A stretch of 64,000 bases of DNA from Yuukianura sp. NJ FZ-2021 (lineage: Eukaryota). This document shows positions 8,771 through 50,000 of the stretch, piece by piece. Within the stretch, counting starts at the first letter, position 1; each line of letters starts with the position of its first letter. The position numbers were made by a program, and so were the translations under genes. The notes below the pieces were generated by a model, which worked only from the letters and a program-made list of their open reading frames with translations, did not search any database and was not told the DNA's origin. Where the stretch lies: NCBI GenBank assembly GCA_046563655.1, contig CM102288.1, positions 62,001 through 126,000 on the forward strand. The letters are read 5' to 3'.

Positions 8771-8911
8771 AAGCCCCCCTTCTGCCCCCCTATTCTTATA
8801 ATCCTTATTCATTATACAAAGTTTTTGGGAAACAAGTAAATCTATTTAGAGACAAACACTTCAAAGGTTTAATTTAATGGATATCTAAGTGGAAAAGTGT
8901 TAGGTTTTGAA

Positions 8912-9420
8912 TTACTTTTTCTTCTTCTTCTCTTTCGTTTCGGAGGATGAGGGTTCGGAGTCGTTGGGTCTAGATCTTGGTTTTTGCCAGTTGAGGGGCT
9001 TCCGACTGTAGATTGGCCATGGTGGAATCGTCAACTGGAAAATTAATTAACTTATGTTAGAATGATGCTGTTGTTAGTTGTACGTTGTACTTACGATGGA
9101 AGCGAGCAGAAACCCACCGCCCAGAATCCACACTGTTTCCGAGAACTGCTGAATGGCATACCCCCAACCGAATCCAACGACCTGTTCACCCAACTTAATT
9201 AACTTCCAATGTTTCTCAAACAATTTGTTTTCCCTTACGCCAAAGAGAAGGATGATGATTCTGGACAACTTCTCAGCTCGAGCCTGTCCATCATAGTCCT
9301 ACATTTTACAAAATGAAATCAGTATCAGTGTTAGTAACAAAGTTAGATGAAGAAATACTTAATTGTGAATTGGCTGTAACTTACCATGTGTAGTCCTTCG
9401 TACCACTCAGTTATTCCCAT
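8912..9420 (-). CDS. SPCS1: Signal peptidase complex subunit 1 (SPC12), 4 exons
   Basis: Spliced product MGITEWYEGLHM/DYDGQARAEKLSRIIILLFG/VVGFGWGYAIQQFSETVWILGGGFLLASI/LTIPPWPIYSRKPLNWQKP...KKKKK* matches the SPC12 pattern (MDxxGQ, two TM helices, PPWPxY..PLxWQ). Confidence 0.92.
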
Positions 9421-18620: not shown

Positions 18621-18833
18621 TTTATTATTCTCTGTTAAGGTGTATTTTCACATTCAGAGACAAATTTTGTAAAAAGTTTATTATTCTTTGTTAAGGTGTC
18701 AATTCACATTCAGAGACAAATTTTTTAAAGAGTTTATTATTCTCTGTTAAGGTGTAAATTCACATTCAGAGACAAATTTTTTAAAGAGTTTATTGTTCTC
18801 TGCTAAGGTGTAAATTCGCATTCAGAGACAAAC
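18621..18833. repeat. 56-bp satellite A, left remnant (~4 copies)
   Basis: TTATTATTCTCTGTTAAGGTGTAAATTCACATTCAGAGACAAATTTTTTAAAGAG units, same family as 20437-22830. Confidence 0.9.
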
Positions 18834-19049
18834 TTTTCTCTAGAAAACTTTCTTTAAGCAAATTTTGAACTTTTCAAACGTTGTTTTTCTGATCTTTAGT
18901 GGACATTTAAAAAGTTCTTTTAAACACAACTTTTCTCTAGAGAAACTTTTTTTAAATTTTGAATTACTTTTCAAACGTTTTTTGAATTTTTAGTGGGGTG
19001 GGGGGGCGTTTAAAAAGTTCTATCTTTTCAAATGTTAGATCCTTCTTTC

Positions 19050-20435
19050 TCACTTTCGAATCCTTCGCAATTTTTTATTTTTTAACCATTAAATTCTTAG
19101 TTCTAAGCTTTGAATCCTTCGCCACTTTCTATCTCTTTAACCATTAAATTCTTAGTTCTTAGCTTTGAATCCTTCGCCACTTTCTATCTCTTTAACCATT
19201 AAATTCTTAGTTCTAAGCTTTGAATCCTTCGCCACTTTCTATCTCTTTAACCATTAAATTCTTAGTTCTAAGCTTCGAATCCTTCGCCACTTTCTATCTC
19301 TTTAACCATTAAATTCTTAGTTCTAAGCTTCGAATCCTTCGCCACTTTCTATCTCTTTAACCATTAAACTCTTAATTCTAAGCTTCGAATCCTTCGCCAC
19401 TTTCTATCTCTTTAACCATTAAATTCTTAGTTCTAAGCTTCGAATCCTTCGCCACTTTCCTTCTCTTTAACCATTAAATTCGTAGTTCTTGGCTTCGAAT
19501 CCTTCGCCACTTTCTATCTTTTTAACCATTAAATTCTTAGTTCTAAGCTTCGAATCCTTCGCCACTTTCTATCTTTTTAACCATTAAATTTTTAGTTCTA
19601 AGCTTCGAATCCTTCGCCACTTTCTATCTCTTTAACTATTAAATTTTTAGTTCTAAGCTTCGAATCCTTCGCCACTTTCTATCTTTTTAACCATTAAATT
19701 CTTAGTTCTAAGCTTCGAATACTTCGCCACTTTCTATCTCTTTAACCATTAAATTCTTAGTTCTAAGCTTCGAATCCTTCGCCACTTTCTATCTCTTTAA
19801 CCATTAAATTCTTAGTTCTAAGCTTCGAATCCTTCGCCACTTTCTATCTCTTTAACCATTAAATTCTTAGTTCTTAGCTTCGAGTCCTTCGCCACTTTCT
19901 ATCTTTTTAACCATTAAATTCTTAGTTCTAAGCTTCGAATCCTTCGCCACTTTCTATCTTTTTAACCATTAAATTTTTAGTTCTAAGCTTCGAATCCTTC
20001 GCCACTTTCTATCTCTTTAACCATTAAATTCTTAGTTCTAAGCTTCGAATCCTTCGCCACTTTCTATCTTTTTAACCATTAAATTCTTAGTTCTAAGCTT
20101 CGAATCCTTCGCCACTTTCTATCTCTTTAACCACTAAATTTTTAGTTCTAAGCTTCGAATCCTTCGCCACTTTCTCTCTTTAACCATTAAATTTTTAGTT
20201 CTAAGCTTCGAATCCTTCGCCACTTTCTATCTCTTTAACCATTAAATTCTTAGTTCTAAGCTTCGAATCCTTCGCCACTTTCTATCTTTTTAACCATAAA
20301 TTCTTAGTTCTAAGCTTCGAATCCTTCGCCACTTTCTATCTTTTTAACCATTAAATTCTAGTTCTACGCTTCAAAGCTTTCGCAATTTTCTATCTTTTTA
20401 ACAATTAGATTTCTAGTTCTAAGCTTCGAGTCCTT
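19050..20435. repeat. 55-bp tandem satellite B (~25 copies)
   Basis: Unit AAGCTTCGAATCCTTCGCCACTTTCTATCTCTTTAACCATTAAATTCTTAGTTCT; period 55 (e.g. 19201 to 19256). Confidence 0.97.
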
Positions 20436-20436
20436 A

Positions 20437-22830
20437 AAGGTATAAATTTACATTCAGAGATAAATTTTTTAAAAAATTTATTATTCTTTGTTAAGGTGTC
20501 AATTCACTTTCAGAGAGAAATTTTTTAAAAAGTTTATTATTCTCTATTAAGGTGTAAATTCACATTCGGAGACAAATTTTTTAAAGAATTTATTATTCTC
20601 TGTTAAGGTGTAAATTCACAGTCGGAGACAAATTTTTTAAAGAATTTATTATTCTCTGTTAAGGTGTAAATTCACATTCCGAGACAAATTTTTTAAAGAA
20701 TTTATTATTCTCTGTTAAGGCATAAATTCGCATTGACAAATTTTTTAAAAAGTTTATTATTCTCTGTTAAGGCATAAATTCGCATTCAGAGACAAATTTT
20801 TTAAAAAGTTTATTATTCTCTGTTAGGGCATAAATTCGCATTCAGAGACAAATTTTTAAAAAAATTTATTATTCTCTGTTAAGGCATAAATTCGCATTCA
20901 GAGACAAATTTTTTAAAAAAATTATTATTCTCTGTTAAGGCATAAATTCGCATTCAGAGACAAATTTTTAAGAAAATTTATTATTCTCTGTTAAGGCATG
21001 AATTCGCATTCAGAGACAAATTTTTAAAAAAAAATTATTATTCTCTGTTAAGGCATAAATTCGCATTCAGAGACAAATTTTTTAAAAAAAATTATTATTC
21101 TCTGTTAAGGCATAAATTCGCATTCAGAGACAAATTTTTTAAAAAAATTATTATTCTCTGTTAAGGCATAAATTCGCATTCAGAGACAAATTTTTTAAAA
21201 AAATTATTATTCTCTGTTAAGGCATAAATTCGCATTCAGACAAATTTTTAAAAAAAATTTATTATTCTCTGTTAAGGCATAAATTCGCATTCAGAGACAA
21301 ATTTTTTAAAAAATTTATTATTCTCTGTTAAGGCATAAATTTGCATTCAGAGACAAATTTTTTAACAAAATTATTATTCTCTGTTAAGGCATAAATTCGC
21401 ATTCAGAGACAAATTTAAAAAAAAATTTATTATTCTCTGTTAAGGCATAAATTCGCATTCAGAGACAAATTTTTTAAAAAATTATTATTCTCTTTTAAGG
21501 CATAAATTCGCATTCAGAGACAAATTTTTTAAAAAATTTATTATTCTCTGTTAAGGCATAAATTCGCATTCAGAGACAAATTTTTTAACAAAATTATTAT
21601 TCTCTGTTAAGGTGTAAATTCACATTCGGAAACAAATTTTTTAAAGAATTTATTATTCTCTGTTAAGGCATAAATTCGCATTGACAAATTTTTTAAAAAG
21701 TTTATTATTCTCTGTTAAGGCATAAATTCGCATTCAGAGACAAATTTTTTAAAAAGTTTATTATTCTCTGTTAGGGCATAAATTCGCATTCAGAGACAAA
21801 TTTTTAAAAAAATTTATTATTCTCTGTTAAGGCATAAATTCGCATTCAGAGACAAATTTTTTAAAAAAATTATTATTCTCTGTTAAGGCATAAATTCGCA
21901 TTCAGAGACAAATTTTTAAGAAAATTTATTATTCTCTGTTAAGGCATGAATTCGCATTCAGAGACAAATTTTTAAAAAAATTATTATTCTCTGTTAAGGC
22001 ATAAATTCGCATTCAGAGACAAATTTTTTAAAAAAATTATTATTCTCTGTTAAGGCATAAATTCGCATTCAGAGACAAATTTTTTAAAAAAATTATTATT
22101 CTCTGTTAAGGCATAAATTCGCATTCAGAGACAAATTTTTTAAAAAAATTATTATTCTCTGTTAAGGCATAAATTCGCATTCAGACAAATTTTTAAAAAA
22201 AATTTATTATTCTCTGTTAAGGCATAAATTCGCATTCAGAGACAAATTTTTTAAAAAATTTATTATTCTCTGTTAAGGCATAAATTTGCATTCAGAGACA
22301 AATTTTTTAACAAAATTATTATTCTCTGTTAAGGCATAAATTCGCATTCAGAGACAAATTTAAAAAAAAATTTATTATTCTCTGTTAAGGCATAAATTCG
22401 CATTCAGAGACAAATTTTTTAAAAAATTATTATTCTCTTTTAAGGCATAAATTCGCATTCAGAGACAAATTTTTTAAAAAATTTATTATTCTCTGTTAAG
22501 GCATAAATTCGCATTCAGAGACAAATTTTTTAACAAAATTATTATTCTCTGTTAAGGCATAAATTCGCATTCAGAGGAATTTTTTAAAAAATTTATTATT
22601 CTCTGTTAAGGCATAAATTCGCATTCAGAGAAATTTAAAAAAAAATTTATTATTCTCTATTAAGGCATAAATTCGCATTCAGAGACAAATTTTAAAAAAA
22701 AATTTATTATTCTCTGTTAAGGCATAAATTCGCATTCAGAGAAATTTTAAAAAAAATTTATTATTCTCTATTAAGGCATAAATAGGTTCAGAGACCTTCG
22801 CATTCAGAGACAAATTTTGAAAAATTTATT
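20437..22830. repeat. 56-bp tandem satellite A (~42 copies) with ~948-bp higher-order duplication
   Basis: Unit TCTGTTAAGGCATAAATTCGCATTCAGAGACAAATTTTTTAAAAAGTTTATTATTC; period 56 (20761 to 20817); diagnostic variants recur 945-948 bp apart. Confidence 0.97.
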
Positions 22831-23190: not shown

Positions 23191-25680
23191 ATGGAGTTTA
23201 TCGAATTAATCAAAGCCCCTAAAGTGGACAATGTCATCCTGAGACGCCCTTTGTATCCAAGAATAGAAGGGACACTTTGTGTCACAGGTCACCACCTCAT
23301 CCTCTCCTCTCGGAAGGACGATCAACAGGAGTTCTGGGTAACTAACTTAACTTTCTAACTTTAATTCCTTATTTTAGGATTAAGCGTGCTCACTGGATTC
23401 TTTTGTCAGTTAATTTAACTGGAAACGTTTTTGTATGGGTTTTAGCTCCTACATCGCAATGTGGATTTGGTCGAGAGGAAACCCTCCCCGCAGCAGTTCC
23501 CAGGTGGATGTTTGGTCATCAAATGCAAAGACTTCTCAGTACTCACACTCGACATTTCTACTACTGAAGACTTCCTTAACGTCGCAGACTCCATTGAAGC
23601 ACTTTCTAATCTCGGTCGGTTTTTCACTTACTTGCATTAATCATTTACTAATTACTCAAACGTGTAGATGTCCCTGGTCTCCTGTACCCATTCTTCTATC
23701 GATCGCTTCAACCCATTGTGGAAGACGGTTGGTTTGCTTTTACGGTGGAAGCAGAGTTTTCGAAACTAGTTCTCAAGACTGATGAATGGCGGATCTCATA
23801 TGTCAACAAGGACTACAAGGTTACCCCATTATAACTACTAACTAACTCTAACTAATTAACAAAGTAATTAAGATGTAGGTGTGTGATTCCTATCCTGAGG
23901 CTGTCGTGGTTCCGAAGTCAGTGGCCGATGAGGTCATTGCCACTGCCGCTACTTTTCGTCAAGGTGGACGTTTTCCAGTTTTATCCTACCGCCATGACAA
24001 CGGCTCTGTTCTTTTACGCTCGGGACAGCCACTGGTGGGGCCAAGTGGAAAGAGATGCAAGGAAGATGAAAGACTCATCAACGCTGTTCTTGGACCTGGC
24101 AAAAGAGGGTACTCCAATCACTTTCACTGGACATAATGAAGAATACTAATCGTTTTATTTTGTTTTTCCATTAGGTACATTGTTGATACGAGGACACAGA
24201 CACTGGCGCAGACTGCAAAGGTTAGTCCAGTTCCAGCCACATTTCCACACACTCTCTCTTTCCACTTCTCACTTTCTTTTGTTGCTTTTGTGCCTGCGAC
24301 TGTATCTCGTCTGCCGCTCCTGACAAATTGCAGACTGCCATTTCATCTTCTTTTGTGTAACTTTTCTCTTTCTCTTTCAACTTCCTTCTCAATTTCCAAT
24401 TCAACTAAAGAAAGTGGGATTTGGGTTTTGTGTGGATGAATTCGACTTCAGGTTGTATTTGATTGGCAGTCACGAGGCGGTGGGTACGAACTGGAAATTC
24501 ACTATCCCCAGTGGAGACGCGTCCACAAGCCGATCGACAGGCATCACAATCTTCTCGACTCCTTGGCCAAGCTCATCGAAGGTTCCCACCAATTCAATTA
24601 CTTACATCAACATTGCAATTCTTCACTTGCAAAATGATGTTTTGAATGTATTTCAGGGTGTAATGACACGAGCGGATCGATGGATAAATGGCTCAGTCGC
24701 TTGGAAGGATCCAATTGGCTAAGCAACGTCAGAGATACTTTGAACTGCGCATGTCTCGTGGCGCAGTGTTTGGATCAAGACAATCTGAGTGTCTTGGCTC
24801 ATGGATCAGATGGGACTGACACGACGCTGGCCGTCACTTCTCTTTCGCAAGTCATCCTAAATCCAGATTGTAGGACTATTCGAGGTTTCGAAGTAAGTCC
24901 AATTCAAAAGTTTAAAAAATACTTGCTTCCTGTCATAATTTTAGTTGATTTTGTGTGGAAACAGGCTTTAATTGAGCGTGAGTGGATTCAAGGTGGCTAT
25001 CCCTTTGGCAGTCGTCACTTTCATTCAGTCTACGCCTATTCTGGATCAACTCTCAAAAATCCCAAGCGGAAATACGCTCCCACATTCCTTCTCTTTCTGG
25101 ACTGCGTCTGGCAACTCTTTTCTCAGTTCCCTTGCAGTTTCCAATTCCAGGAAAACTTCTTGATCACCGTCTTCAACCATTCTTACGCTTCACAGGTAAC
25201 AATAATTGGCATTAACATTAAATATTAAACCTGTGCTTTACTTTATACTTGATTTCAGTTTGGAACATTTGTGGGAGACACTGTTGCAGAGAGAGAAGCA
25301 CTGGAACTAAGACAGAAAACTGTTAGTTTGTGGTCGTACGTCAATCGGACTGATGTGATTCAGACATTCATGAATCCACTCTACGAACCAAATCCTGCTG
25401 TCATTTGGCCTTCAGTCGCTCCACCTTCAGTCGTAAGCATTCTAACACTTTCCGTAATACTTTATCTAACTAATTGACTTTCTTTTTTAAGACTCTTTGG
25501 TCTGGTCTGTTTCTGCGATGGGTGGTGGATCAGTCACAAGCCGAGAAAGTTTGGACTGAAATGGGAACGATGAAGGAGCGTGAAAACGAATTGAGAAGAC
25601 GAGCAGCCAAACTAAGGAAGGAACTGCTGGAGTTGGAGAGAAAGGTGAAGCCCAGCGACGGGGAGTCAGACGCACTTTAG
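23191..25680 (+). CDS. MTMR9: Myotubularin-related protein 9 (pseudophosphatase)
   Basis: MEFIELIKAPKVDNVIL...GTLCVTGHHLILS; FRQGGRFPVLSY; LAHGSDGTDTT in place of catalytic CX5R; LIEREWIQGG; PTFLLFLDCVWQ; C-terminal coiled coil; TAG ends at 25680. Confidence 0.93.
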
Positions 25681-31969: not shown

Positions 31970-32934
31970 ACTTGAACTGAAAAGTAATCACAAATCATTA
32001 AATTAAAACTAAACATTGGATATTGGAATTTATGTGCCTCCATTCTACTAAAATTGGATCAAGATGATTCACCTCTTGCTTGGCATCTCCTCCTAACCAA
32101 ACGTCAGTCAAGAAACAACGCTTGCACGGAATATACTGGACACTGACTGGAGTGTTTTGCACTGTACAGCTGTCTTCTACCAAACACACCAACAGTTTAT
32201 CAAGTACTCACTCAATAACAAGCTAAGTTAGTCTTACGATTTGGGACCAAAGAGAGGATCACACGGCACACTTGGAATTTCCAACGAACGTTTATGCACA
32301 CTAATTGATTACACGAGTTAGGTTTTAATTGATTTTGGAATTGGCGAAGAAGATGAGAGCAAGTGGAACTTACAACGACCCAATGAACGAATGAACAACA
32401 CGAAATCCAAAGTTTAGCAAATGCAAATGAGAAGAGATGGGTCCTCTTTTCTGCACGCAAAAAAAGAACAATAGAATTCCATTTTTAGCCCAATTACAAA
32501 CAGCTAGAGTCATGCGCCCCCAATTTAAGTCTATGAGGATTATTCATAATCCCAAATTTCAGAACGATAGAAATTTAATTTATGTGGAAAGTTCGAGTGT
32601 ATGAATATCAGAATTCCAATTTTCAAAAAACTAGAAAGCTAAAGGCCTGTTTATACCGGACCACTGGATGGATTTTCCTTCCACTGGACGTCCAGTCCAG
32701 TGGAAAAAATTTGTCTCGTTCATACCAGATTTTGGGGAAAGTGAGGGGTGGATTTTTTTTCCATGGATGGATTTTCCTTCCACTGGAAAAAAAATCCATG
32801 GGTGCAGTATGAACGGAGGTTTTCCACTCTGGATTTCTGAAAGGCGCCTTTCAAATAAAAGTTGAAATGTGTGAACAAAGAATTGGTGTTTTGAACAACT
32901 GAAAAAAACATAATCGGTTTAGATACTTTTGAAA

Positions 32935-34486
32935 ATGGAAGATTCGGTAGATATCGCAGTTTTGTTTTACATGTATCGACGATTAAAACGAAAAAAAAGG
33001 AGGAGGTGGTCGGTACACCCTCTGAACACCCTTCGTCCATCACTTGGAGAACATATCAAAATTCAGAAAATGTACGACTCGTATCCAGAACTTTTTTTTC
33101 AGTATACAAGGATGACTCCATCCACTTTCGACACCCTGCTCAATTTAATTGCACCAAAGATATCAAAACAGGATACAAACTATCGACAGGCAATACCTGC
33201 ACGTGATCGACTGATTGTTACTCTCAGGTTAGCTCTAACCTCCAATTTACAATTTGAGGGTTTATTTCTATAATCGATTTTTCTAACAGGTACTTGGCTA
33301 CTGGAGATTCAATTACAACGATTGCAACGAGCTTCAGCATGGGGAAGTCAACAGTTTGGTGTGTGATTCAGGAGGTCTTGGATGTAATCTGGGAGGTTCT
33401 GTCACCTAATTACTTAAAGGTACGAGACGAAATTGAGCAAATAAAAAAAAGCATGGAGCCATGCTAAAGTCAGCTTTTCTTTATTTAGTTTCCATCACAG
33501 GAAGACTGGCTTAGAATTGTCAAGGATTTTGAAGACAAATGGCAGTTCCCAAATTGTTTCGGTGCCGTAGACGGCAAGCATGTGGTCATTGCCGCCCCTC
33601 CCAACTCCGGTTCATTGTATCACAATTATAAGGGATCGTTCAGCATCGTTTTGCTTGCGACGTGTGATGCGGACTACAATTTTACATTTGTGGACATTGG
33701 AGCGTACGGCAGGCAAAGCGACGGAGGAATCTTCCAAAATTCAGCGCTTGGAAGAGGCCTACTACAAGGTTAATTTTTAAAAAAAGGTTCAGTGTGGCTC
33801 CACACTAACTTTTTTTTCTAATTTTTTTTATTTTCCATACATTTCAGGCTCTATCGACATTCCCGGCGACAGAAGAATCCCAAATACGAATCTAGTTCAG
33901 CCGTGTACCCTTGTAGGAGATGAAGCCTTTGCGTTGTCTGATTTTATGATGCGACCTTACTCCGGCGTTGTCAAAGATGCTAGAAAACGCATTTTCAATT
34001 ACAGACTGTCCCGTGCTCGTCGTATTATTGAAAACACTTTTGGTATCATGGTCAGCCGTTATCGAATTTTCCAACGCCGGCTGTACGCGGACGATACGCA
34101 GGTTAAAAGGATTGTAAGAGGTAGGATGTAGATGACTTTTGACTACAGCATGGAGCCATGCTAAAAACTAAACTATCCCATCATTTTCAGGGACAACGGT
34201 TCTTCATAATTTTGTCAGGCACCAAGAGAAGGGTCTTCAACCTACCGGGAGAATGTACTGTCCCCCTGGTTATGTGGACTCAGAAGACGAACGAAACGGA
34301 GGTTGGAGAACTGAAATGTCTGGAGAACTAATTTTGACTCCTGTTAAGTTATCCAGCTCACACAATGCGGTCAATTCTGCCAAACAAATGCGTGACAATT
34401 TGGCTGATCATTTCATCTCTGAAAACGGAAAGGTTGCCTGGCAAGACGAAAAAGCGGCTTTACTACCTGGATACAATACTTATTAA
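32935..34486 (+). CDS. Harbinger/HARBI1-like DDE transposase, 5 exons, ~423 aa
   Basis: Exons 32935-33227, 33290-33419, 33489-33768, 33848-34120, 34191-34486 join in frame without stops. Motifs [57 protein letters not shown] triad present. Confidence 0.93.
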
Positions 34487-34564
34487 TGTTTTGAATGTTT
34501 AATGTTTAATAAATATTTTAGAATCCAAAAGTATGGCGCCATACTCCACTTACTCATTCTGTAC

Positions 34565-35475
34565 TCAAACGTCCGCGTTAAGTACAGTGATTGTGGGATG
34601 TTTGCAATCAAACAACAGTTTCGAGATTTGAAATTTTAGGAACGACGCTGTCGCAGGTTCCATTTTGCGTAGTTGTTCAGCTATGTCCATCCCAAAGTGA
34701 TGAAACTCGTCTTGATTTATGTTTGGTCTTTTCAAATATCTCACGAATTCCGCTTCCACACGATCACTTGGACTTGTACCACTCCATTTTCGTTTTCTTG
34801 AGTTTGTATGGACTTCATGAACTTCCGCGTCCTAAAAAAAGTTTAGTTTAGAATGGCTCCATTCTCAACTGTCTATAAACTAGAACTAAACTTTTACAAT
34901 AATTAAACTTACAATGCTGTTCATTGGTAGGGTAGAGGTACCATCCGCATCCACTGGGTCCTCCTCGTCTTGAACGTTGGGTTGAGAGTCCAAGTTTCCA
35001 GATGTACTGTACATAAACATATTAAAAGACGAGTATAATAATTCATGCATTACATTTAACAATTGCATATTAGCTACAACAATGACAAACCTCGCAGATG
35101 CATAGTAGTCATCCATAAATCGGAGTGAATGGAAATACGGCCAAGCTTCAATCTTTTTGCGGGCCTGACCTGTCTTCCCTATTATCTGTTGCTTTTTCTT
35201 CCGATAGGAATCTTTCAATTTGCTCCATGTTGACCGGCACCATTGAGCTGTGATAATGAACATTCTTATTACAATTTAAATTAAACTGAAAATAGCATGG
35301 AGCCATGCTCACCTTCCTGGCCAATTTCAGCAGCAACTTCTTCCCATGCTTGCTCTCGTAAGAACTTGTTCCGGTTTGATGAAGAACTAGCATCGTAAAG
35401 AACTTTACGGTTTTGTACTGCCGTTATCAAAAACTCTTTTGCCTCTCCGTCGTTCTCTTGACTTTCGTTATCCAT
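34565..35475 (-). CDS. Harbinger accessory MADF (Myb/SANT-like) protein with BESS-like C-terminus, 4 exons, ~226 aa
   Basis: Exons 35475-35313, 35247-35091, 35006-34913, 34831-34565 join in frame. LITAVQNRKVLYD...REQAWEEVA...WSKLKDSYRK...WPYFHSLRFM (MADF); C-terminal DEFHHFGMDIAEQLRKM...LKFQISKLL. Confidence 0.88.
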
Positions 35476-36516
35476 AATAACTTTGATTAATTATATAAAA
35501 AACCAATTAAGTTTCTAAAATCAAGTTCTAGTTTTATGGGGTTCTATTATGAAAACTATTTGACTTGTTTTGTCATTCGAACTTTTTGTTTCGCGCTGCA
35601 GATTGTGAGATTGGGGTAAAGTAAGACAAATTTCGTACTCAATCCAGACCAAAAGTTCAACTGAATGAACTTTTGGTCTGGATCGTTTCTCCCATCTCTC
35701 AACATTACAAGAAAATCCAGTGGAAAAAATTTCCATGGACGGATTTTTTCGGTGTGAACGATGGAAATCCAGTCCAGTGGAAAAAAAATCCACCCCAACT
35801 TTCTCTGGATGATCCATCCAGACGGATTAAATCTGGTATGAACGACTGGATTGCAGTCCAGTGGAAGGAAAATCCATCCAGTGGTCCGGTATAAACAGGC
35901 CTTAAAGCTAGAAATTAAAGGATAAAATTAGAGTGTATGAGTAACAGAATTTCGAATTTCAAAACGCTAGAAATTTAGATGGCAAATCCAAGTGTATGAG
36001 TAGAAGAATTCCAAATTTTAAAACGTCAGAAATCTATGAGGAAAATTCAGGTGTATGAGTAGCAGAATTCCAAATTTCAAAAAGCTAGAAATTTAATAGG
36101 CAAATTCAGGTGTATGAGTAGGAGTTAACAGAATTCCACATTTGAATTCATTCCAATTACAAATTGAATGGTGGCGCATACCTCTTATATTTTAGACCTA
36201 AACTGGATTGTAGAATTGTTACTTAAGTTTATCCTCAATTTGCTACACTTTGACATGGTAGATTGGATATGTTATATTGCGACACCTATGTAAATACAGC
36301 TTCAAATCCCTGCGAAAATTCCCTGCTCTCATTGGTCCACAAACTGGAGGTCAAGCAACGCGGGCTTATCAAAAAGTAGCGGAGATTTACTCGGTTGTTT
36401 ACATTTTTTATAAACTTAACTTTTTACAATTTTATATCATTTTGTTTACTACCTACAAGTGTGAATATAATTAATTAGTGAAGTCAATTAATCAAGCACA
36501 AGTTAACACAAGAAGT

Positions 36517-38631: not shown

Positions 38632-41600
38632 ATGCCACAAGCGTCCAAGGAAACGTTTTATCCTGCTGAAACAGCCTACCTCGTAAACCACTTCATTACT
38701 TAATTTCTAATTAGTTTTGATTCGATTGCACTTAAGCACTCATAGGAATCACCGCTCGAATGATCACTTCTAACTCACCTTAATTTTTACAATTACCGTG
38801 TTGATTTGCTGTTTTTTAATATTTTTAATCCAAGTTTTTTTTAAAGCTTGTTACTAATGTTGTTTTTGCATGGACTAGCATCGATTGCTGCCATCGAGGT
38901 TTGTTGCTAATTGTTTGACTACATTCAAAGAGGTAAACCATTAATCATCTTACACTCAATTCACCCTTCAGTTTAATCATTTCAGTTGACCAATTCAGTA
39001 ATTTATGTTTATTTTTGGTTTAAGGGTCCTGGGTACTTGAAGCGAGCTCCACCAGGGGCCCTGGAGCACGTATTCCGGAAGTATGCGACGGTGACAGTGG
39101 ATGGTGAGCTGTACATGACTGCAGAGGACTTTGTAAGGAACTACCTCGGCCTCTTCTCCACTCCCGACCACAACCGGAAGTCAGTCAAGCTCCTCGGCGG
39201 CATCATCGACACTTCCAAGGATGGCCTCATCTCTTTTCCCGAATTTCAGGCCTTCGAAGGGCTCCTCTGTGTCCCCGATGCACTCTACAAGACGGCCTTC
39301 CAACTCTTCGACACGAACGGATCAGGATTCGTCAGTTTCGAAGAGTTCAAGGAGATCTTAGTCCACACGGAACTCCATCGACGAATACCCTTTGACCTCG
39401 ATGGTGGATTTGTCAAGTTGTACTTTGGGAGGGACAAGAAACGCAGAGTGACTTACATGGAATTCAGCCAGTTTTTACATGTAACCCACCTTCACTTTCT
39501 CAATTGACTAACAATGATCAATGTTATTTCAAATTACTTGAATTGTAGGATTTTCACGAGGAGTACGCAGTGGAGGCCTTTCGGCAATCAGACAAGGAAG
39601 GAACTGGATTCATCACCCCCATGGTCAGTTTCCATTTTAATTCAACTTTAATTGAATTAATTAATTAAGTTAAGTATAATAGTTATTAATTAATTAGATT
39701 AGTTGATTTAAGTTGGTGTTGTTGACAGGACTTCCTCAATATTATGAAAAACATCAAGAGCCATTTGCTGACCGAGGCAGTGGCCAATAATCTTGTTGCG
39801 GTGAGACAAATTACCTTTCTCTGATATCTTTTTGTGCGCATTAATCTTAAGTCTAGTGTTACTTTTGTGTTGATTGAAGGTGGCAACTTCGAATAGTCAT
39901 CGCATTTCGTTTCCGTTCTTCATGGCCTTCAACTCTCTGCTCAATCAAATGGAGTTGATGAAGAAAATCTACCTGCAAGCCACAGGGAATTCCCGAACGA
40001 CGCCAGTGACTAAAGAGGAGTTTCTGCACTCTGCCCAGATGATGAGCCAAGTGACTCCTCTGGAAGTGGACATTCTGTATAGACTTGTGGACATGACGGA
40101 AGCGAGGACAGGCAAGGTCACTTACGCTTCTCTCCAGAGAATCGCCCCTGAGCAATATTTTAAGCAAATGCAACGCAGAATAGCAGACGTCCATCTCGTC
40201 AACTCAGTCGAGGAGAGAGGAATCTTCATCCAGATACTCGAATCTACATATCGATTCACACTCGGAGCTTTGGCCGGCGGTAAGTGCTCAATCTTTTGAT
40301 TTCTAAGTCGTTTTGGAACTAATTGTTGTGTTTCTTGTAGCTGTTGGTGCAACTGCTGTGTATCCAATTGACTTGGTCAAAACTCGGATGCAGAACCAGC
40401 GAACAGGGTCCTACATTGGAGAATTGATGTACAAATCCAGTTGGGATTGCTTCAGAAAAGTTGTGAGGCACGAGGGAGTGGGTGGACTCTACAGAGGTCT
40501 CCTTCCGCAGGTACTTTTCAGTAATTAAAAATCTAATCAACTTAATTTGTGTGTTTTTAATTGTGAATTTGTGTAATGTTTTGTAGTTGATGGGCGTGGC
40601 TCCGGAGAAGGCCATCAAGTTGACTGTCAATGATTTGGTTCGTGACAAGCTCATGGACAGTCAGGGTCACATCACCTTCATCAACGAAATGGTCGCCGGT
40701 GCTTGCGTAAGTCAAATTTCAAAATTGAGAATTTAAGGATTTTGGTACTAAATTCCAATCCAAAAACACAATCTTTTGAATACCGTTTTAATTCTGTTGT
40801 ACTTTGTAGGCTGGTGGATCCCAAGTTATTTTTACAAATCCTCTGGAAATAGTGAAGATTCGGTTGCAAGTCGCTGGCGAAATTGCAAGCAGTGGAAAAA
40901 TCAGTGCCTTGGGAGTCGTCAAAGAGTTGGGGCTCTTCGGATTGTACAAAGTAACTCCATTAGTCAAAAATCAACTCACAAACCAATTTCTAATTCGGAA
41001 ACTGTTATTTTGCAGGGAGCGAAAGCCTGTTTTCTGCGTGATATTCCGTTTTCAGCCATTTACTTCCCGGTGTATGCTCATACGAAAGTAAAGTTCCAGG
41101 ATGAAAATGGCTACAACTCTCCCCTGTCTCTCCTTGTCAGGTCAGTTTTACTCTTTTATTTACATTGAACAATGAAAAGAAAATGAAATGATTTGTTTTC
41201 AATTGGTAATTGTTTATCCAGTGGAGCCATAGCGGGTGTCCCAGCTGCCAGTTTGGTAAGATATAAGTTATCTCGTCTAGCCAATTAATTAACAAACAAA
41301 CTTTAGCTTAAACTTTTAATGTCAACCTGTTATGATGTCAATGTCTCTAGGTCACTCCGGCCGATGTCATCAAAACTCGGTTGCAAGTTGTGGCGAGAGC
41401 AGGCCAAACGACGTACACTGGAGTGTTTGATGCTGCTAAGAAGATCATGGCAGAGGAAGGATTCTCTGCATTTTGGAAGGGAGCTGGGGCTCGTGTGTTG
41501 CGCTCAAGTCCACAGTTCGGTGTGACACTCCTCACCTACGAAGTACTTCAGCGTCTCTTCTACGTCGACTTCAAGGGAACGTAAGGACCCTTACAAATAT

Positions 41601-42842: not shown

Positions 42843-43550
42843 ACAATTACCCTAGCGAATCGCCACCCCCGATCTCAGCTGAAATCGGGGGGGTTGGAGG
42901 CGATTCGCTAGGGTAATTGTCGATTTCCGCTGAGATCGGGGGTGGCGATTCGCTGGGGTAATTGTCGATTTCCGCTGAGATCGGGGGTGGCGATTCGCTG
43001 GGGTAATTGTCGATTTCCGCTGAGATCGGGGGTGGCGATTCGCTAGGGTAATTGTCGATTTCAGCTGAGATCGGCGATGGCGATTCGGTAGGGTAATTGT
43101 CGATTTCCGCTGAGATCGGCGATGGCGATTCGGTAGGGTAATTGTCGATTTCCGCTGAGATCGGGGGTGGCGATTCGGTAGGGTAATTGTCGATTTCAGC
43201 CGAGATCGGCGGTGGCGATTCGCTAGGGTAATTGTCGATTTCAGCTGAGATCGGCGGTGGCGATTCGCTAGGGTAATTGTCGATTTCAGCTGAGATCGGC
43301 GGTGGCGATTCGCTAGGGTAATTGTCGATTTCAGCTGAGATCGGGGGTGGCGATTCGCTAGGGTAATTGTCGATTTCAGCCGAGATCGGGGGTGGCGATT
43401 CGCTAGGGTAATTGTCGATTTCAGCTGAGATCGGGGGTGGCGATTCGCTAGGGTAATTGTCGATTTCAGCTGAGATCGAGGGGTGGCGATTCGCTAGGGT
43501 AATTGTCGATTTCAGCTGAGATCGAGGGGTGGCGATTCGCTAGGGTAATT
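42843..43550. repeat. 45-bp CpG-rich tandem array (~14 copies) preceded by one inverted copy
   Basis: Unit GGGTAATTGTCGATTTCAGCTGAGATCGGGGGTGGCGATTCGCTA; inverted copy at 42843-42887. Confidence 0.95.
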
Positions 43551-44027
43551 ATTATTATTATTGGGTTTGGTGGTTACAGCAGATGCGACGCGGCCTTAAG
43601 TCAACCACTCCACTCCTAAAAGCCCAAATAAAAAACAAAGATAAAATCTGAACCTGACTGAATCTCTATTTATAAACAAAAGACTTAGCTTTACTTGTTT
43701 TCAGTTAATTAACTTATTAATCAATTAGACCATAGTGAGTTTAATTCCTAAGTGGTTCCCTTTGGGGAACGATCCAATGGACACCCAGAGACGTTCTTCT
43801 CCTCACATGTCTTGGATCATGGAGATTGACTGTGACGGTGACCTTTGAGCATTCATTTTCAACTTTGGGATTTGTGAAACTGATCTGTGTCTTTATTAGT
43901 AAGCGCAATGCTGCTTCCAGTACATTTGAAGGTAATTCATCACAAGTATGTGCTGGTTGAGATATTTGTAGATCCTGTTGTGATTACACTTTGTGTTTTA
44001 GGTCATGAAGTGAGTGACATCCCCAGA

Positions 44028-47000
44028 ATGGACCACAGTGTCAAACGAATAGACAAGAACTGGTGGTGGAGTGAGCAGTTTTCCAACGTGGAATTGGAGG
44101 AGCTGTTTCAGCGCTATGCAGCCAAAGTGCAGACTCGATCCTCGTTCCTCATCTTCGCCTTGGGCTGTGGAGCATTGGCCCTGTTGCAGTTCAGTCTGAC
44201 CATGGAAACACTGGGACTCGCCCTGGGCGCCATCAGCCTCGTCGCTCTCTGGATTCTGCAGAGACTTTACGGAAGAGTCTGGATCCTCACCACTGCCTGG
44301 ATACTGTTCGCCATTCTCTTCTGCATCATCCCTCTTCCAGCACCCATTCCCCACAGAACAGGCAAGGAAACAATTAAGTTCACAGTAGAAGTGGAGTTAA
44401 TTGGATGTTTGTGTTTAGGTGTTCCGTTGGTGGCAGCTGAAGGGTCTTGGGCCATTGCCTTTGTGATCTTCATTGGATTCGTGTCACTGGAGATCCCTCT
44501 GTTGGTGGGAATGGGGCTAGCTGTTGCCCTGTCCACTGCCCATGCAGTCTCTGCCTACTTGTTTGCTACTTCCTTCACTTACCTCCAAATAGCTCAACTC
44601 GTAGTCAATGTTCTCACTTGGGGCACGGTGGCTGTCACTGGGTTTTGGATTCACCGCAAGGCTGATGGAGCCACTCGCAAAGCCTTCCTAGACACTCGGC
44701 AGTCAATACAAGCACGATTAGCAGCTCATGACGAAAATGATAAATTAGAAAGGTAAAACTAACAATTGATACTATTAAATTATTCCTGCTTCAACTTGTA
44801 ATTGTTGTTGGTTGTCATTTAGACTTTTGCTCTCTGTTTTACCGTCCCATGTGGCAATGGAGATGAAAATGGAATTGGTTTCTCCCATAGCACGTCAAGT
44901 AAGTGAATCAAATACAAAGTTCAGGTGATTTTTAGTGATTAATTGTGCTTTGTTTTCAGTTTCACAAGATTTACATCCAGAAACACGAAAACGTGTCCAT
45001 TTTGTTTGCTGACATTGTTGGCTTTACAGTTTTGGCCTCTCAAGCTTCTCCGCACGAACTCGTACGACTTCTGAACGAACTCTTTGGAAGATTTGATCTT
45101 CTCAGTCAGGTATGCTTTCTACAAGCTCAAATATTGTATCAATTTCCTCATTCGGAAGTTTTTGTTTATTAAATTTTTTGTTTTTGCAGGAGAATAACTG
45201 CCTTCGGATTAAAATCCTCGGAGATTGTTACTACTGCGTTGCAGGCAAGTTCATATAAATCTCGGTCCACAAAGCTTCAAGATTTTGAATTACTAATGTA
45301 AAGTGTAATTGTACCTAGGGCTTCCTGATCCTCGGCCAGACCATGCTCATTGTGCAGTTGAAATGGCTCTGGACATGATTGAGGTAACTTACACTTTCAT
45401 TTTGTTTCGACAATTGTTAATCGTTTTCTACTGTTTTCAGACAATCGCCAGTGTTCGAGAGGCCACTGACTTCCAGCTGAACATGCGTGTGGGCATTCAC
45501 TCGGGAAGAGTACTTTGTGGCGTACTGGGACTCAGAAAGTGGCAAGTAAGGAAGCAATACTTTTCCATTCCAAGGTCAAAGGTCACTCAAACTAATTTTT
45601 TGATTCTCTTTGGCAGTATGACGTTTTTAGTAACGATGTGACAATTGCCAACGCAATGGAGAGCTCTGGAGAGGCTGGACGGGTTCACATCACACACACC
45701 ACTTTGGCATGTCTCGGTGGGGAATACGAAGTGGAACCTTCGGAATGTACTCACTCCACACTCAGGGAAAACCAAATCCGGACCTTCTTCATTGTCCCAC
45801 CAGTCAGGAGAAGGAGACTTTTACTATTCAATACTCTCAAAGTGCAGCAACGCAGGAAACTCAGCTTCAAAAACGTCTCAAACGTCGTCATCCAGCTCCT
45901 CCACTCAATGAAGTTCGGAGTGGAACTCCCTTTTGCCAACATGGTCATTCCTCCAGGTATACTTTTAAAACTAAATTAAAAGTTAACACTTTTAGTACTT
46001 TAAAAACTAAAAACAGTTTGGAATCTAACATTTTGTTTTATTTGGAGATGCTGGAGGGAAATCGATACAGCACCAGCGGAAAACTAAAGTGAGTGAACGA
46101 TTTCGCAGTCCGTTCAAGAAGCGCCATGCGTCTGTTCTGCATCAGCCGACAAACAGAGTGAACAAATACCTGGCTCAAGCCATCGAAGCAAGAAGTGTCG
46201 ACCGCGAAAAGAAACAACTCATCAACTCTGTTACCCTCTGCTTCCGGGACAGACAAATGGAACGTAAGCTAAGTCATTTCAACTAAATCAATTAAACTAA
46301 CTTTTAACTAAACTATTGAAATCGTTGAACTAAAGGTTGTTTTGTTTTTAGGAATGTTTCATTCTGACACTGACCAGGCTTTTGCTTCTGCCTTGACACT
46401 CCTCCTCGCCATCCTCGTCGTCCTAGGAGGAATCCAAGCTACAATTCTTCCACGAACTTTCATTCTACTTCTGCTTTTCCTTACGGCCTTTGCCTGGATC
46501 TCTGTCGTCATTATGCTTCTTCTCGCAGGTAAAACATTCTAAACTCAACAATTCTTCTGAATTTTCGTGTTCAGTACCATTTCTCTTTGAAATTTCAGCT
46601 CGGCTGAGGCTAATCATTTGGGATTTGGCCAAGTCCCCTCTTCTTCGTACGGCCATCGCCGTCTTCTCACTCATTCTTGTCTACGCTGTTGGCCAAGTCA
46701 ACGTAAATGACACATATTCAAGTACATTTGTGAATAGGATTCAAATGATGATTGTTCTTTTTCATTTGTTAGGTTTTCACATGCGTTGCCCGATGTGGAA
46801 ATGTGACTATTGATGACGGCGTTTCTCGAGCCGTTAAAGCTCCATCCAAGTTCCTAGAAGATCATCGATGGTGTGCAATTCCGCACTACGTAGTTCACTC
46901 TGCACTGCTCTCTCTACTAGGAGTCGCTCTCTTCCTTCGTCTCCCCATCACTCTCAAAGGAGCTCTGCTTTTTATCATTGGATCCATGTACTCTCTACTC

Positions 47001-50000
47001 ATCCTCATCACACATGCACACATCTTCGACTGCTACGACCTCAGAGAACCGTAAATTACTATCAACATTTACTCAAATCATTCTGCTAACCTAACCTTTA
47101 ACACGAAACAATTGACATCTTTTGCAGAGTCTTGATTTCGACGAAGATTGTGTCTGTGTTGCAAATCTGGCTGTTCTTGTTCCTTGTCCTCGCACAAAGC
47201 AGTCAAATAGAGTGGATGGGTAAACTTTACTTCAAAATAATACTTTCAACTCAAAATGTTGTTAATCTTTTACCATTTGAATTTTGAACAGCTCGCCTGG
47301 ACTTTGTTTGGCAGTGGCAAGCCTTGACAGAGAGGCAGGAAATGGAAGCCCTCCAGCAGTCAAACAAGGTTCGGATCCAAAGTTATTATTGATGGATTTG
47401 TGATGGACTTGATGCCAATACTGGTTTCTTTTGCAGAGAATTTTGAATAATATTTTGCCGATGCATGTGGCCCAGTACTTTCTTGAATTTCGAAACAACA
47501 TGGACTTGTATCACCAAAGTTACTCCAAGGTTGGTGTCTGTTTTGCTACAATCACCAACTTCCACGAATTCTACACCGAACTGGATGGAAACAATCAAGG
47601 AGTTGAGTGCTTGCGGCTTCTCAACGAAATTATTGCCGATTTTGACGAACTTTTGAGTGAAGAACGATTCTGCGCAATTGACAAAATCAAAACAGTGGCC
47701 TCTACATACATGGCAGCAGGTAAACATTAAGAAAAACTAAAAATCACAACTGATGAGTTTAGTTAGAACATTTATATTTGTGTTTTTAGTGGGACTGATT
47801 CCGGATCACAAGATTGACGATACAAATGAAGCCCAACTTTTGAGCACTCTTGTAGAATTTGTGTTTGGTCTTCGAGAACGTCTCCTTACAATCAATGAAA
47901 ACTCTTACAATTCCTTTATGCTGCGAGTGGGACTAAACATTGGTCCAGTTGTCGCCGGTGTAATTGGAGCTCGGAAGCCGCAGTACGACATTTGGGGCAA
48001 CACAGTCAACGTCGCAAGTCGCATGGATTCCACTGGACTACCAAATCAAACACAAGTCACTGAAGAAGTTTACAACATTCTCAAGAACTGCCCCTACGAG
48101 TTCCAGTGCAGAGGGAAAGTGAAAGTAAAAGGAAAAGGGGACATGACGACTTACTTTCTCGTGGACAGGAAACAGTCAACTACGATGAGAATAGAGGAAG
48201 TCCAACCCAGAAATGGAAACAGGCCCTACAACTTCTTCGGTGGAATCCCCACTCCCTTGGCTTTCGTCACAAATTCAAACCAGGGTTCTGGTCCACCAAT
48301 CCCTTTGCGCTCAATTTCAAATTCGTCACAACATGGACACCATCCTGGTGGAACTGGAATTCCGGTGGCTGAAAAGGAGCCGCTCCTCCCTCCTCCTCCG
48401 CCGCCACCAAGAAACAACCAAAACCACCATCAGATTCATATCCACATGAACAGAAATCCAGAAACGGAATTGGCTTGGCCAAGAATAGCCAAAGTTTATC
48501 CTTCTGAACAGAGAACTTCTCCAGTCAAAAGAACACACAGCGACAGAGTCACGCCAACCAGAGAGGTAAACATTCTTACTACTTTACTTTTTTTAAACAT
48601 ATTTTTAGTAGAATTACGAATATTATCTAGCCTTGAACTTTCAGATGGCCTTGAGGTCCCAAAATGTTTCTAAAGAAGCACCAACTCGTCGTCTCGGCGT
48701 TTGTCAACGGAATTTGTCAGACAACAATTTACCGAATCGAGGCGGACGGGCTAAGGGCCCCCATCATGCTCTGATGCCCTGTTCATCTGCAGATGACGTT
48801 TCTTCCTTGAATCGAAGTTCAAGTGATTCGTCTAGTGATGAGTCTCCTTCAGGGTCCCCACCACCGCCCTTGCCCAAGGACAAGGAAGTGAAAGAAGCAT
48901 CCCTTCATTCTCACTCTTCCAAAAATAGTCAGTGTTCAGCTCAGGCCAGAATCTCACTGGATTACGCTCATCGCCAACTCCCACCCACTCCTGGAGAGAA
49001 GAACCACAAATCTCCTGTCTATCAAAACGACAGGAATCACCAGTCGGAAGATGGAGAAGGGACTGGCAGGAAATCAGACTCCAGTGGACCTTCCACCGGC
49101 ACTCGCAAGGACTCTTCCTGTCAAACGGAAAAATCGTACGTCAACAAAGGAAGTCGAATCTCAGATTTTGAAAAAGAAATTAAAAAACTACTGGAACGCC
49201 AAAAACTGCCGCCAGTCGATGAACTCACGTCCGTTCACAAAGTACTTTCCGTCATGGAGAAAATTAGGTACGATTTTTTATTACTTTTGGGGAAGTATTT
49301 TTGCACTTATTATTTTTGTTGGTTTTGTTTACTATTTTGATTTGTTTAGTTGATTTCGTTATGATTTTTATTATGATTTGAGCACAGAGGGTCAGTTGGT
49401 ACAAATGCAGGAAATGTGGGAGAGTCATCGCAGTCGAGTCTAGGAGCTTTAGAACAAAAAGCGTTGAAACAGCAGGAACAACTGGAAAGAACTCCATTGG
49501 GTTTCAAATTTCCCTTACAAATGAGTCCTGTGCCAAGCAGGACTGTAGCCACAAAGCGTTCGAGGTTTACTTTTCTTTTTTTGTTTTCATTTTTACTTTT
49601 TACTTTAGAAAGTTACTAAAGTTAGAATATTGATTATATTATGAATTTTGAAAGTGAATTGTGATGAGATTGTTTTTGTAATTACAGGAAGGAAGGGAAT
49701 AAGGATTCTGAATATGAAAATGTGGAAACGGAAGAAGATGAAGAAGATCCTGAGCTGAGAAGAGAAAAGGAAGAAATACGTAAATTTGAGGAAGAAGAAC
49801 AGCGACTCATGGCAAAAGGTAAGCGAAGCAACCTAAAATCACTTGGATATTTCAACATTTGTGAAATTTTTGATGTGTTGATTGTAAATATTTGTTGTTT
49901 TAGCTGATGAGATGAGTCAATCGGAGTGGAGTGACGAGAGTGAGCAGGAGGGAGGGGGAGACAATGACGATGAGCAGCAAGAGGGTGATGGATATGCAAC

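Follow-up and report, generated by a model that had tools for sequence, protein, structure and literature searches.

Why should a DNA transposon carry variants of one short palindrome in nearly every intron of its two genes? The question is raised by a 64,000-nucleotide stretch of the genome of Yuukianura sp. NJ FZ-2021 (GenBank assembly GCA_046563655.1, contig CM102288.1, positions 62,001 to 126,000 of the forward strand), referred to here in its full length as the window, in which a complete PIF/Harbinger element encodes a transposase and, in convergent orientation, a MADF (Myb/SANT-like) protein. Seven perfect palindromes of 16 bp occur in the introns of both genes and between their stop codons, and an initial annotation, made from the sequence letters, had suggested several roles for them, with coupling to splicing listed first. 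That role is also the one favored by the present data, and we tentatively propose that the palindromes are cis-acting RNA hairpin modules of this Harbinger subfamily, which would mask processing signals of the element's own transcripts. The regularity itself is clean, statistically solid and apparently undescribed, and it rests on one copy of the element and on one relative seen at the protein level.

Seven palindromes in one transposon

The transposase gene lies on the forward strand and has four introns (T-i1 to T-i4), while the MADF gene lies on the reverse strand and has three (M-i1 to M-i3). A search of the window with the pattern AGNNTRGNNCYANNCT, which describes the family consensus AGNNTRG-NN-CYANNCT with arms of 7 bp and a center of 2 nt, returned seven matches. 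All seven agree in sequence and coordinates with the palindromes first described in the initial annotation. The copies, none of which has a strand of its own, are as follows, with the predicted folding energy of the RNA hairpin where one was obtained.

33226..33241, palindrome 1, AGGTTAG-CT-CTAACCT, at -2 to +14 of the T-i1 donor (AG/GTTAGC); -4.8 kcal/mol
33450..33465, palindrome 2, AGCATGG-AG-CCATGCT, in T-i2, 23 nt before the acceptor and followed by AAAG; -7.2 kcal/mol
33791..33806, palindrome 3, AGTGTGG-CT-CCACACT, in T-i3, followed by AAC (CACTAAC); -6.9 kcal/mol for the 20-mer
34147..34162, palindrome 4, AGCATGG-AG-CCATGCT, in T-i4, 28 nt before the acceptor and followed by AAAAACTAAAC; -7.0 kcal/mol
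34530..34545, palindrome 5, AGTATGG-CG-CCATACT, fully symmetric, between the two stop codons; -4.9 kcal/mol
34850..34865, palindrome 6, AGAATGG-CT-CCATTCT (sense AGAATGG-AG-CCATTCT), in M-i3, 18 nt before the acceptor and followed by AAACTAAAC
35294..35309, palindrome 7, AGCATGG-AG-CCATGCT (sense AGCATGG-CT-CCATGCT), at +4 to +19 of M-i1 (GTG/AGCATGG...); -7.3 kcal/mol

The proposed comparison with shuffled sequence gave a clear enrichment: 100 dinucleotide shuffles contained a mean of 0.14 matches and a maximum of 2, so that none of them reached seven. No further match was present on either strand of the 64 kb, allowing one broken pair added no family member inside the element, and a search with up to three mismatches to the commonest 16-mer returned family members only. 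None of the palindromes can be extended to 8-bp arms. Palindrome 3 does form the tip of a longer stem (AAAAAAAGGTT.AGTGTGG / CCACACTAACTTTTTTTT), and palindrome 6 is nested in a perfect inverted repeat of 12 bp (AAAAGTTTAGTT / AACTAAACTTTT).

The compensated variation of the arms was likewise borne out, all 49 arm pairs of the seven palindromes being Watson-Crick. There are five distinct arms among the seven copies, which are paralogues inside one element and not orthologues, and every arm is perfectly matched; covariation, in the sense of paired changes that keep pairing, is thus found among seven paralogous copies. The variable arm positions 3, 4 and 6 change jointly in both arms, while A1, G2, T5 and G7 are conserved and the center is AG or CT in six of the seven. 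Three copies, at 33450, 34147 and 35294, are identical and occur in both orientations relative to the transcripts. Distances from start to start range from 224 to 444 bp, as first noted, and neither regular spacing nor nucleosome phasing was seen over the six intervals. A reading of the surrounding sequence found no target-site duplication or extended inverted repeat around the 16-mers.

The 7-2-7 geometry is not confined to this family. Perfect 7-2-7 palindromes occur nine times in the element, whereas 1000 shuffles yielded 0.32 on average and never more than 3; two of the nine, TGAAAGGCGCCTTTCA at 32838 and CGTAAAGAACTTTACG at 35394, have arms unrelated to the family.

32838..32853, TGAAAGG-CG-CCTTTCA, in the transposase leader, 82 nt before the ATG; -4.8 kcal/mol
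35394..35409, CGTAAAG-AA-CTTTACG, inside MADF exon 1

The first has the core GG-CG-CC in common with palindrome 5, and its membership in the family is uncertain; the second is probably coincidental, given its unrelated arms. Because the second lies in an exon, the statement that no palindromes occur in exons or elsewhere in the window holds for the motif family but not for 7-2-7 palindromes in general. Chance or an assembly artefact might be suspected with a small sample and one element copy, but both are refuted for practical purposes by seven matches where 0.14 are expected and nine 7-2-7 palindromes where shuffles average 0.32 and never exceed 3, and by independent contigs of four sequencing runs that match 33102-33891 and 33862-34279 with 0 differences and 34408-35690 with 3.

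Placement along the two transcripts

The placement of the palindromes was read against gene models that were built from the sequence and whose splice sites are predicted.

32643..35902, no strand, complete PIF/Harbinger element of 3,260 bp with 48-nt perfect terminal inverted repeats and a TAA duplication
32935..34486, + strand, transposase gene, 423 aa, intact, spliced frame open, 5 exons and 4 introns
32935-33227, 33290-33419, 33489-33768, 33848-34120 and 34191-34486, + strand, transposase exons
33228-33289 (62 nt), 33420-33488 (69), 33769-33847 (79) and 34121-34190 (70), + strand, T-i1, T-i2, T-i3 and T-i4
34565..35475, - strand, MADF (Myb/SANT-like) second gene, 226 aa, spliced frame open, 4 exons and 3 introns
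35475-35313, 35247-35091, 35006-34913 and 34831-34565, - strand, MADF exons
35312-35248 (65 nt), 35090-35007 (84) and 34912-34832 (81), - strand, M-i1, M-i2 and M-i3

The transposase is 56% identical over 397 aa to an ALP1-like protein of Folsomia candida, in an alignment that runs without gaps through the exon junctions, and it has 301 homologues at E <= 0.001. Its exons 3 and 4 match the Pfam family DDE_Tnp_4 (PF13359; E 1e-13 and 3e-11), and MADF exons 1 and 2 match MADF_DNA_bdg (PF10545). A DDE_Tnp_4 transposase, a MADF second gene, and terminal repeats (100% complementary) bordered by a 3-bp TAA duplication at 32640-32642 and 35903-35905, together with the signs of mobility described below, place the element in PIF/Harbinger.

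Six of the seven introns carry one palindrome each, and the remaining copy lies between the stop codons, so that the gene models uphold each of the placements given at first. In the first intron of each gene the palindrome sits on the 5' splice site (T-i1) or adjoins it (M-i1). In T-i2, T-i3, T-i4 and M-i3 it is found 18-41 nt before the acceptor, and in all four cases it is followed directly on the sense strand by AA(A/C), which stands 16-40 nt before the acceptor, in introns where the frequency of the dinucleotide AA is 0.11. The resulting junctions, GCTAAAG, ACTAAC, GCTAAAAAC and TCTAAAC, contain branch-site-like CTAAC or CTAAA; the metazoan branch-site consensus is CTRAY. The antisense flanks of the same palindromes are TT, GA, GT and CA and follow no rule. 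Since the DNA motif is symmetric and the AA(A/C) rule holds on the sense side only, the asymmetry follows the transcript. Palindrome 5 lies 16 nt after the AATAAA of the transposase gene, between the transposase TAA, which ends at 34486, and the MADF stop at 34565, and is therefore inside the 3' untranslated region of the MADF gene.

The copies are also evenly dealt out. Seven copies fall in eight internal non-coding segments with none doubled, for which random placement gives P of about 0.019, or about 1e-4 when the two leader regions (625 nt, in which no family motif occurs) are also allowed. In the remaining 60.7 kb of the window, which holds at least 10 host genes with short introns, the motif occurs 0 times, and two introns of the arginyl-tRNA synthetase gene that were read have none. 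The claim that the motif is restricted to this element, and within it to non-coding parts, at most once per internal segment, is thereby sustained, and on the 60.7 kb of host sequence covered the motif is not a genome-wide introner: introners and introner-like elements are recognized by many near-identical introns in unrelated host genes.

Two further features of the introns may be noted. The first 27 nt of M-i1 (35286-35312, - strand) read GTGAG-CATGGCTCCATG-CTATTTTCAG and combine a donor, a hairpin and an acceptor-like TTTTCAG in one short unit; splicing at this TTTTCAG would run into a stop codon, so that the real acceptor is placed 38 nt further on. CAGGT is present at both ends of T-i1, and no other duplications flank the palindromes or the introns.

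When each copy is folded alone as RNA, the predicted ensemble is dominated (frequency 0.76-0.92) by a hairpin whose stem has 6 bp and whose loop has 4 nt, with energies between -4.8 and -7.3 kcal/mol. In T-i3 the palindrome tips a stem of 17 bp. An origin as mirtrons was considered and rejected: a mirtron is a short intron that folds as a whole into one pre-miRNA-like hairpin with the splice sites at its ends, and the stems here, of 6-17 bp, lie inside the introns.

How such hairpins might act can be outlined from their positions. In the first introns the hairpin would pair with or abut the 5' splice site. In the four later introns the 3' arm, which ends in CU, would run into AA(A/C) and leave a candidate branch site, CUAAC or CUAAA, at the foot of the stem, while in the spacer of the convergent genes the hairpin would occupy the transposase poly(A) site and lie in the MADF 3' untranslated region. 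Hairpins so placed could lower the efficiency of splicing and 3' end formation, or impose dependence on a helicase or some other factor, and control of this kind would set the amount of full-length transposase and MADF protein; retention of T-i1, for example, would yield an N-terminal fragment of 113 aa. The strict Watson-Crick symmetry is probably kept by template switching between the arms rather than by stepwise compensatory substitution. Action as RNA, use of CUAA as a branch site and any regulatory effect are what we infer from this placement.

Relatives and rival explanations

The age of the introns was judged from 80 related Harbinger loci in metagenome contigs (280 kb; 52-68% identity in exon 3). 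When these were searched by tblastn with the spliced transposase, a single uninterrupted match crossed the site of T-i3 in 77 of 80 loci, that of T-i4 in 65, that of T-i2 in 49 and that of T-i1 in 23, and in several relatives the match is broken by real gaps, at aa 98 in five loci (354-1197 nt) and also at aa 141. The alignments of 143 representative homologues extend through residue 98; of these, 55 have open reading frames (ORFs) that stop directly behind it, 53 continue into unrelated tails and 35 continue into exon 2, which amounts to an interruption at the intron 1 codon in 108 of 143. The positions of T-i1 and T-i2 are thus old, and those of T-i3 and T-i4 lineage-specific. Of the latter two, T-i4 is the older, since the homologues P0008, P0018, P0019, P0026 and P0092 end at its site and span that of T-i3. 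Palindromes are present in old and lineage-specific introns alike, which argues that they were acquired or kept independently of intron origin. The suggestion that they are footprints of how the introns arose accordingly does not fit T-i1 and T-i2.

One diverged family member seems to have retained a related module. The homologue P0004 is a 325-aa ORF on a 4.8-kb contig, with 68% identity to the window transposase in exon 3 and about 59% over the exons, and it has two insertions, one of 19 aa that coincides exactly with the T-i3 site and one of 26 aa that does so with the T-i4 site; both appear to be in-frame introns read through by the gene caller. The insertion at T-i4 reads TKSVAPHTNDRIF... 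and contains SVAPH, the translation of AGTGTGGCTCCACAC (palindrome 3 of the window), and then TN, which stands for ACN AAY and may be compared with CCACACTAAC / ...CACTAAC in the window. Back-translation permits AGTGTGG-CNCC-CCACACT or GTGTGG-CN-CCACAC and excludes a strict 7-2-7 palindrome. No other match to any of 16 palindrome pentapeptides was present among 120 homologues (38,778 residues). When shuffled, this whole set yields 0.2 such matches, which corresponds to about 2e-4 for the 45 residues derived from introns. This protein-level match suggests that a related module exists in P0004 beside the same TAAC, in another intron than in the window. In a genomic copy about 85% identical to the element, the alignment runs from the first base of palindrome 6 to the M-i3 acceptor and the 5' part of the intron is unaligned.

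Other searches gave little. The peptide of palindrome 1 occurs in none of the exon 1 tails of the 143 representatives (P0260 has only LAL in common with it), a protein word search with the exon 1 read-through ORF returned no match, and a 19-mer of palindrome plus AAA had 0 matches in viral contigs. Dictionary back-translation of the homologues yielded two family-compatible hexapeptides where 3.4 are expected, which is chance, and the feasibility of palindromes in back-translated read-through tails proved too permissive to use. Two further observations may be recorded. A 14-mer variant (SWSRL) in the tail of P0092 has P of about 0.03, was defined post hoc and is a weak lead only. In the intron corresponding to T-i1, two distantly related Harbinger loci carry a similar sequence, L041 having ATGTTGG-CT-CCAATGA at 1996-2011 and L042 a CCGATGA variant of it at the matching place, with the TGG-CT-CCA core and G-T wobbles; this is one match in about 6 kb of relatives' introns and is within chance (about 0.18 expected).

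Copies within the genome, compared by way of contigs from four DNA runs of one sample, indicate a mobile family. Contigs of two runs (X1 and X2) join 32634 to 35904 and so represent an empty site; this joint is either a satellite unit without the insertion or an empty allele, the element being inserted in a 59-bp satellite array (32545-32640 and 35905-36146) with units like ...GTGTATGAGTAGCAGAATTCCAAATTTCAAAAAGCTAGAAATTTAAT.... Contig depth at the element ends (32619-32856 and 35594-35950) is about 5-40 times that of the interior, and joints that skip 2.2-2.9 kb of interior are found at 32774 to 35670, 32741 to 35666, 32868 to 35431 and 33242 to 35480, which together point to abundant, internally deleted derivatives of the autonomous element, similar to miniature inverted-repeat transposable elements. 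In one high-copy derivative the left breakpoint is 33242, the base directly after palindrome 1. Further copies in the contigs are only 80-90% identical to the element, and with the empty site and the deletion derivatives they indicate that the family has been mobile and has diversified in this genome.

The hairpin reading is favored because placement follows the transcript, because the copies fall one per segment and occupy old and new introns alike, because P0004 appears to retain a module and because the stretch from hairpin to acceptor is conserved in the diverged copy of M-i3. Several observations weigh against it. M-i2 has no family palindrome and, if spliced, is spliced without one; as first described, it has only ATGTAC-T-GTACAT, a 6-1-6 palindrome (34999-35013) that spans its acceptor. 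The motif is absent from the 80 related loci, where 7-2-7 palindromes do not exceed background; by the criterion of the initial annotation itself this tells against a feature of Harbingers in general, although these relatives are distant (52-68% identity in one exon). No family palindrome was found in the T-i3 read-through of P0004, and in another diverged copy of the element the stretch of palindrome 2 is replaced by 81 other, unread letters. As to structure, among the eight regions folded (seven introns and the spacer) whole-region folds are unremarkable save for T-i3 (z = -2.9) and the intergenic region (z = -2.5). Stems under selection at the RNA level usually include some G-U pairs, and there are 0 among the 49 here. 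The sense-strand center is AG in three introns and CU in three, so that the loop is not conserved as RNA, and the innermost G-C pair, invariant in all seven, cannot form in RNA with a 2-nt loop. The sharing of the 7-2-7 geometry by unrelated arms hints at a process at the DNA level. Finally, the splice sites, branch points and poly(A) sites on which the reading draws are themselves predicted.

A process of that kind is at the heart of the next explanation, which we consider possible but rather unlikely: the palindromes would be a functionless module that propagates itself or is maintained by mutation. Ectopic gene conversion, or insertion in the manner of introners, would copy a short cassette of palindrome plus 3' intron from one non-coding segment of the element to another. 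Template switching during replication or post-excision gap-repair synthesis would keep the arms complementary, and copies would survive only in introns and spacers, those in exons being selected against. The three identical copies in both orientations are what such copying would produce, and so is the likeness of introns in different genes: T-i4 and M-i3, on opposite strands, have the palindrome and AAA(AA)CTAAACT in common, and T-i2 and M-i3 are 81% identical over 32 nt. The TG-type arm, found in T-i3 here and in T-i4 of P0004, looks as if it had moved between introns, and T-i3 and T-i4 are themselves lineage-specific. The recurrence of the 7-2-7 geometry with unrelated arms and the deletion breakpoint right after palindrome 1 also fit. 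Spread as such is harder to reconcile with the lack of target-site duplications or extended inverted repeats at the 16-mers, with 0 copies in 60.7 kb of host sequence, host introns included, and with palindromes in the old introns T-i1 and T-i2 and in the intergenic spacer. Random spread would be unlikely to leave every segment with at most one copy and the 625 nt of leader with none; no decayed copies (6 of 7 pairs) exist; the sense-strand CTAA rule holds in four of four mid-intron copies; and about 15 nt are kept in a relative whose exons are only about 59% identical.

The mutational part of this explanation has a known basis. According to PMC8794818, one template-switch event is enough to make an arm a copy of its partner. 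The mechanism explains multi-base "compensatory" changes and perfect stems that have no G-U intermediates, just as 49 Watson-Crick pairs of 49 would be expected from templated copying. In addition, quasipalindrome mutations have been reported during double-strand-break repair (bioRxiv 10.1101/2023.08.09.552703). Because an arm can be copied in one event, perfect compensation alone is weak evidence for selection, and with 0 G-U pairs among 49 the original argument from compensation to selection on structure is weakened. As a mutational mechanism, however, template switching predicts no arm consensus, no limit of one copy per intron and no placement at splice signals; the consensus AG..TRG, with conserved A1, G2, T5 and G7, the shared center and the placement rule do not follow from it.

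It is quite improbable, judging from sequence, that the palindromes are DNA binding sites for a symmetric protein dimer, whether of the MADF protein, the N-terminal domain of the transposase or a host factor. Such sites could serve transpososome assembly, the control of chromatin or silencing, or transcription of the two convergent genes, and they would sit in the only internal sequence free of coding constraint. The strict two-fold symmetry, the fixed length of 16 bp with sharply ending arms and the invariant outer AG/CT, inner T-R-G/C-Y-A and central step are in keeping with this, as is occurrence in either orientation to transcription and also outside introns (34530 and possibly 32838). Moreover, in Ping/mPing, of the same superfamily, internal sequence is reported to matter for transposition and to affect mobility (PMC9921582). 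Why positions 3, 4 and 6 should change jointly in both half-sites is not explained by a dimer site, and these variable positions are never independent. The terminal and subterminal repeats, where DNA-binding proteins of the element should act, contain no half-sites (AG..TGG or CCA..CT), the five isolated AG..TGG all lying away from the element ends, and the 80 related elements show no enrichment of the core TGG(AG|CT|CG)CCA, which occurs 11 times where about 13 are expected. Nor does this reading account for the CTAA flank, which follows the transcript, or for the 5' splice-site placement in the first introns; spacing is irregular, and the earlier proposal of a strictly symmetric dimer site is not supported.

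The element has other inverted or repeated motifs that may be mentioned here. Subterminal repeats TCCAGTGGAA-N6-8-TCCAYSS, several at both ends (32660-32830 and 35710-35880) and without the intronic half-site, are likely to be bound by the proteins that the element encodes. Upstream of the MADF gene, in its leader or promoter region, an inverted repeat (ATCCAGACCAAAAGTTCA / TGAACTTTTGGTCTGGAT, 35642-35683) has perfect arms of 18 bp on either side of a 6-nt spacer; it is far longer than the intronic palindromes and unrelated to them in sequence. PIF and Harbinger3_DR have palindromic extended target sites, and palindromic DNA is read by transposases of this superfamily. The known PIF/Harbinger target sites are centered on a 3-bp TWA and so are of odd length, whereas the palindromes here are even, have AG, CT or CG at the center and lie inside the element, so that mimicry of target sites was rejected.

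It is also conceivable, though we would give the full combination little credence, that function and mutation act together in a distributed splicing gate. With one 16-nt module at a processing signal of almost all introns and at the 3' end that the two genes share, a single trans-acting factor could switch the transposase and its MADF partner together. Candidates would be a helicase of the germ line or, acting on RNA or single-stranded DNA, the MADF/BESS protein that the element encodes. Template switching would keep the module perfect as it is copied from intron to intron, and function and mutational drive would in that case jointly explain the "covariation." Some further explanation outside those considered here retains a small share of the probability.

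Known systems, genomic setting and significance

A literature search, in which subscription-only papers and supplements were outside the scope, brought up no report of a Harbinger or other DNA transposon in which a palindrome recurs from intron to intron, and the exact 16-mer was not found in the literature searched. The nearest known things are regulatory intronic stem-loops, the P-element intron, fungal stwintrons and the template-switch hairpins discussed above. The hairpin at the 5' splice site of tau exon 10 is an intronic stem-loop that regulates splicing. In yeast, the introns of RPL22B and RPL30 are bound by their own protein products (bioRxiv 10.1101/814301). Like these, the palindromes would place a short hairpin on or by the 5' splice site or branch region of the pre-mRNA in which it occurs, and control of dose or tissue would be expected; unlike them, they form a family of perfect palindromes in six of seven introns and the 3' end region, whereas the known stem-loops are single, gene-specific and usually imperfect, with G-U pairs.

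Transposons are known to be regulated through their introns. In the Drosophila P element, regulated splicing of the third intron confines transposase to the germ line, and control of transposon splicing linked to PIWI-interacting RNAs also exists. The proposed likeness is that the activity of a DNA transposon would depend on inefficient or conditional removal of its own introns, with retention giving a truncated N-terminal protein; the P element differs in using exonic, protein-binding pseudo-splice sites at one intron, with no palindrome in every intron. Fungal introns provide a further parallel. In the Hypoxylaceae, symmetrical stwintrons and their sister introns have sequence in common, lack flanking duplications and have an inverted-repeat symmetry that is suspected of a role in their proliferation (PMC8469720). 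The introns described here resemble them as predicted spliceosomal introns with shared sequence, inverted-repeat symmetry and, apart from the CAGGT of T-i1, no flanking duplications; stwintrons differ in having terminal inverted repeats of 45-55 nt over the whole intron and in occupying many host genes, while here an internal palindrome of 16 bp is confined to one transposon family and is found also at ancient intron positions.

The element lies in a gene-dense window of a compact arthropod genome, in which introns measure about 60-100 nt. Exon ORFs identify host genes for CNOT1, NAD kinase, a myotubularin-related phosphatase, an EF-hand protein, adenylyl cyclase, an SH3 protein, arginyl-tRNA synthetase, a tetraspanin and an NHL/filamin-repeat protein, in the intervals 1-9000, 15283-16014, 24638-25228, 38977-39507, 43884-49340, 53046-53585, 53918-56147, 60397-60870 and 62220-63549. 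An exon of the arginyl-tRNA synthetase gene encodes a sequence with 60-63% identity to insect proteins and 59% to a springtail protein. Adjoining satellite arrays in 18621-22783, with a 55-bp unit repeated 25 times (19055-20435) and a 56-bp unit repeated 42 times with a higher-order period of 223 bp (20437-22783), account for most of the AT-only 7-2-7 palindromes that the window contains. Finally, a 45-bp tandem repeat of 14 units with 97% identity (GGCGATTCGCTAGGGTAATTGTCGATTTCAGCTGAGATCGGGGGT) lies at 42899-43550, in long open frames of the reverse strand, just upstream of the adenylyl cyclase gene.

Many diverged copies of this young, intact element are present in its own genome. If the hairpins do gate splicing, they would represent a new way for a cut-and-paste transposon to control the dose or tissue of its activity, through one repeated module at every intron of both genes as compared with the single regulated intron of the P element. 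The perfect covariation of the arms may stem from templated mutation and not from selection, which matters for the use of covariation as proof of RNA structure. Even as a mere mutational by-product, the palindromes would still be a tidy natural example of palindrome maintenance inside a transposon.

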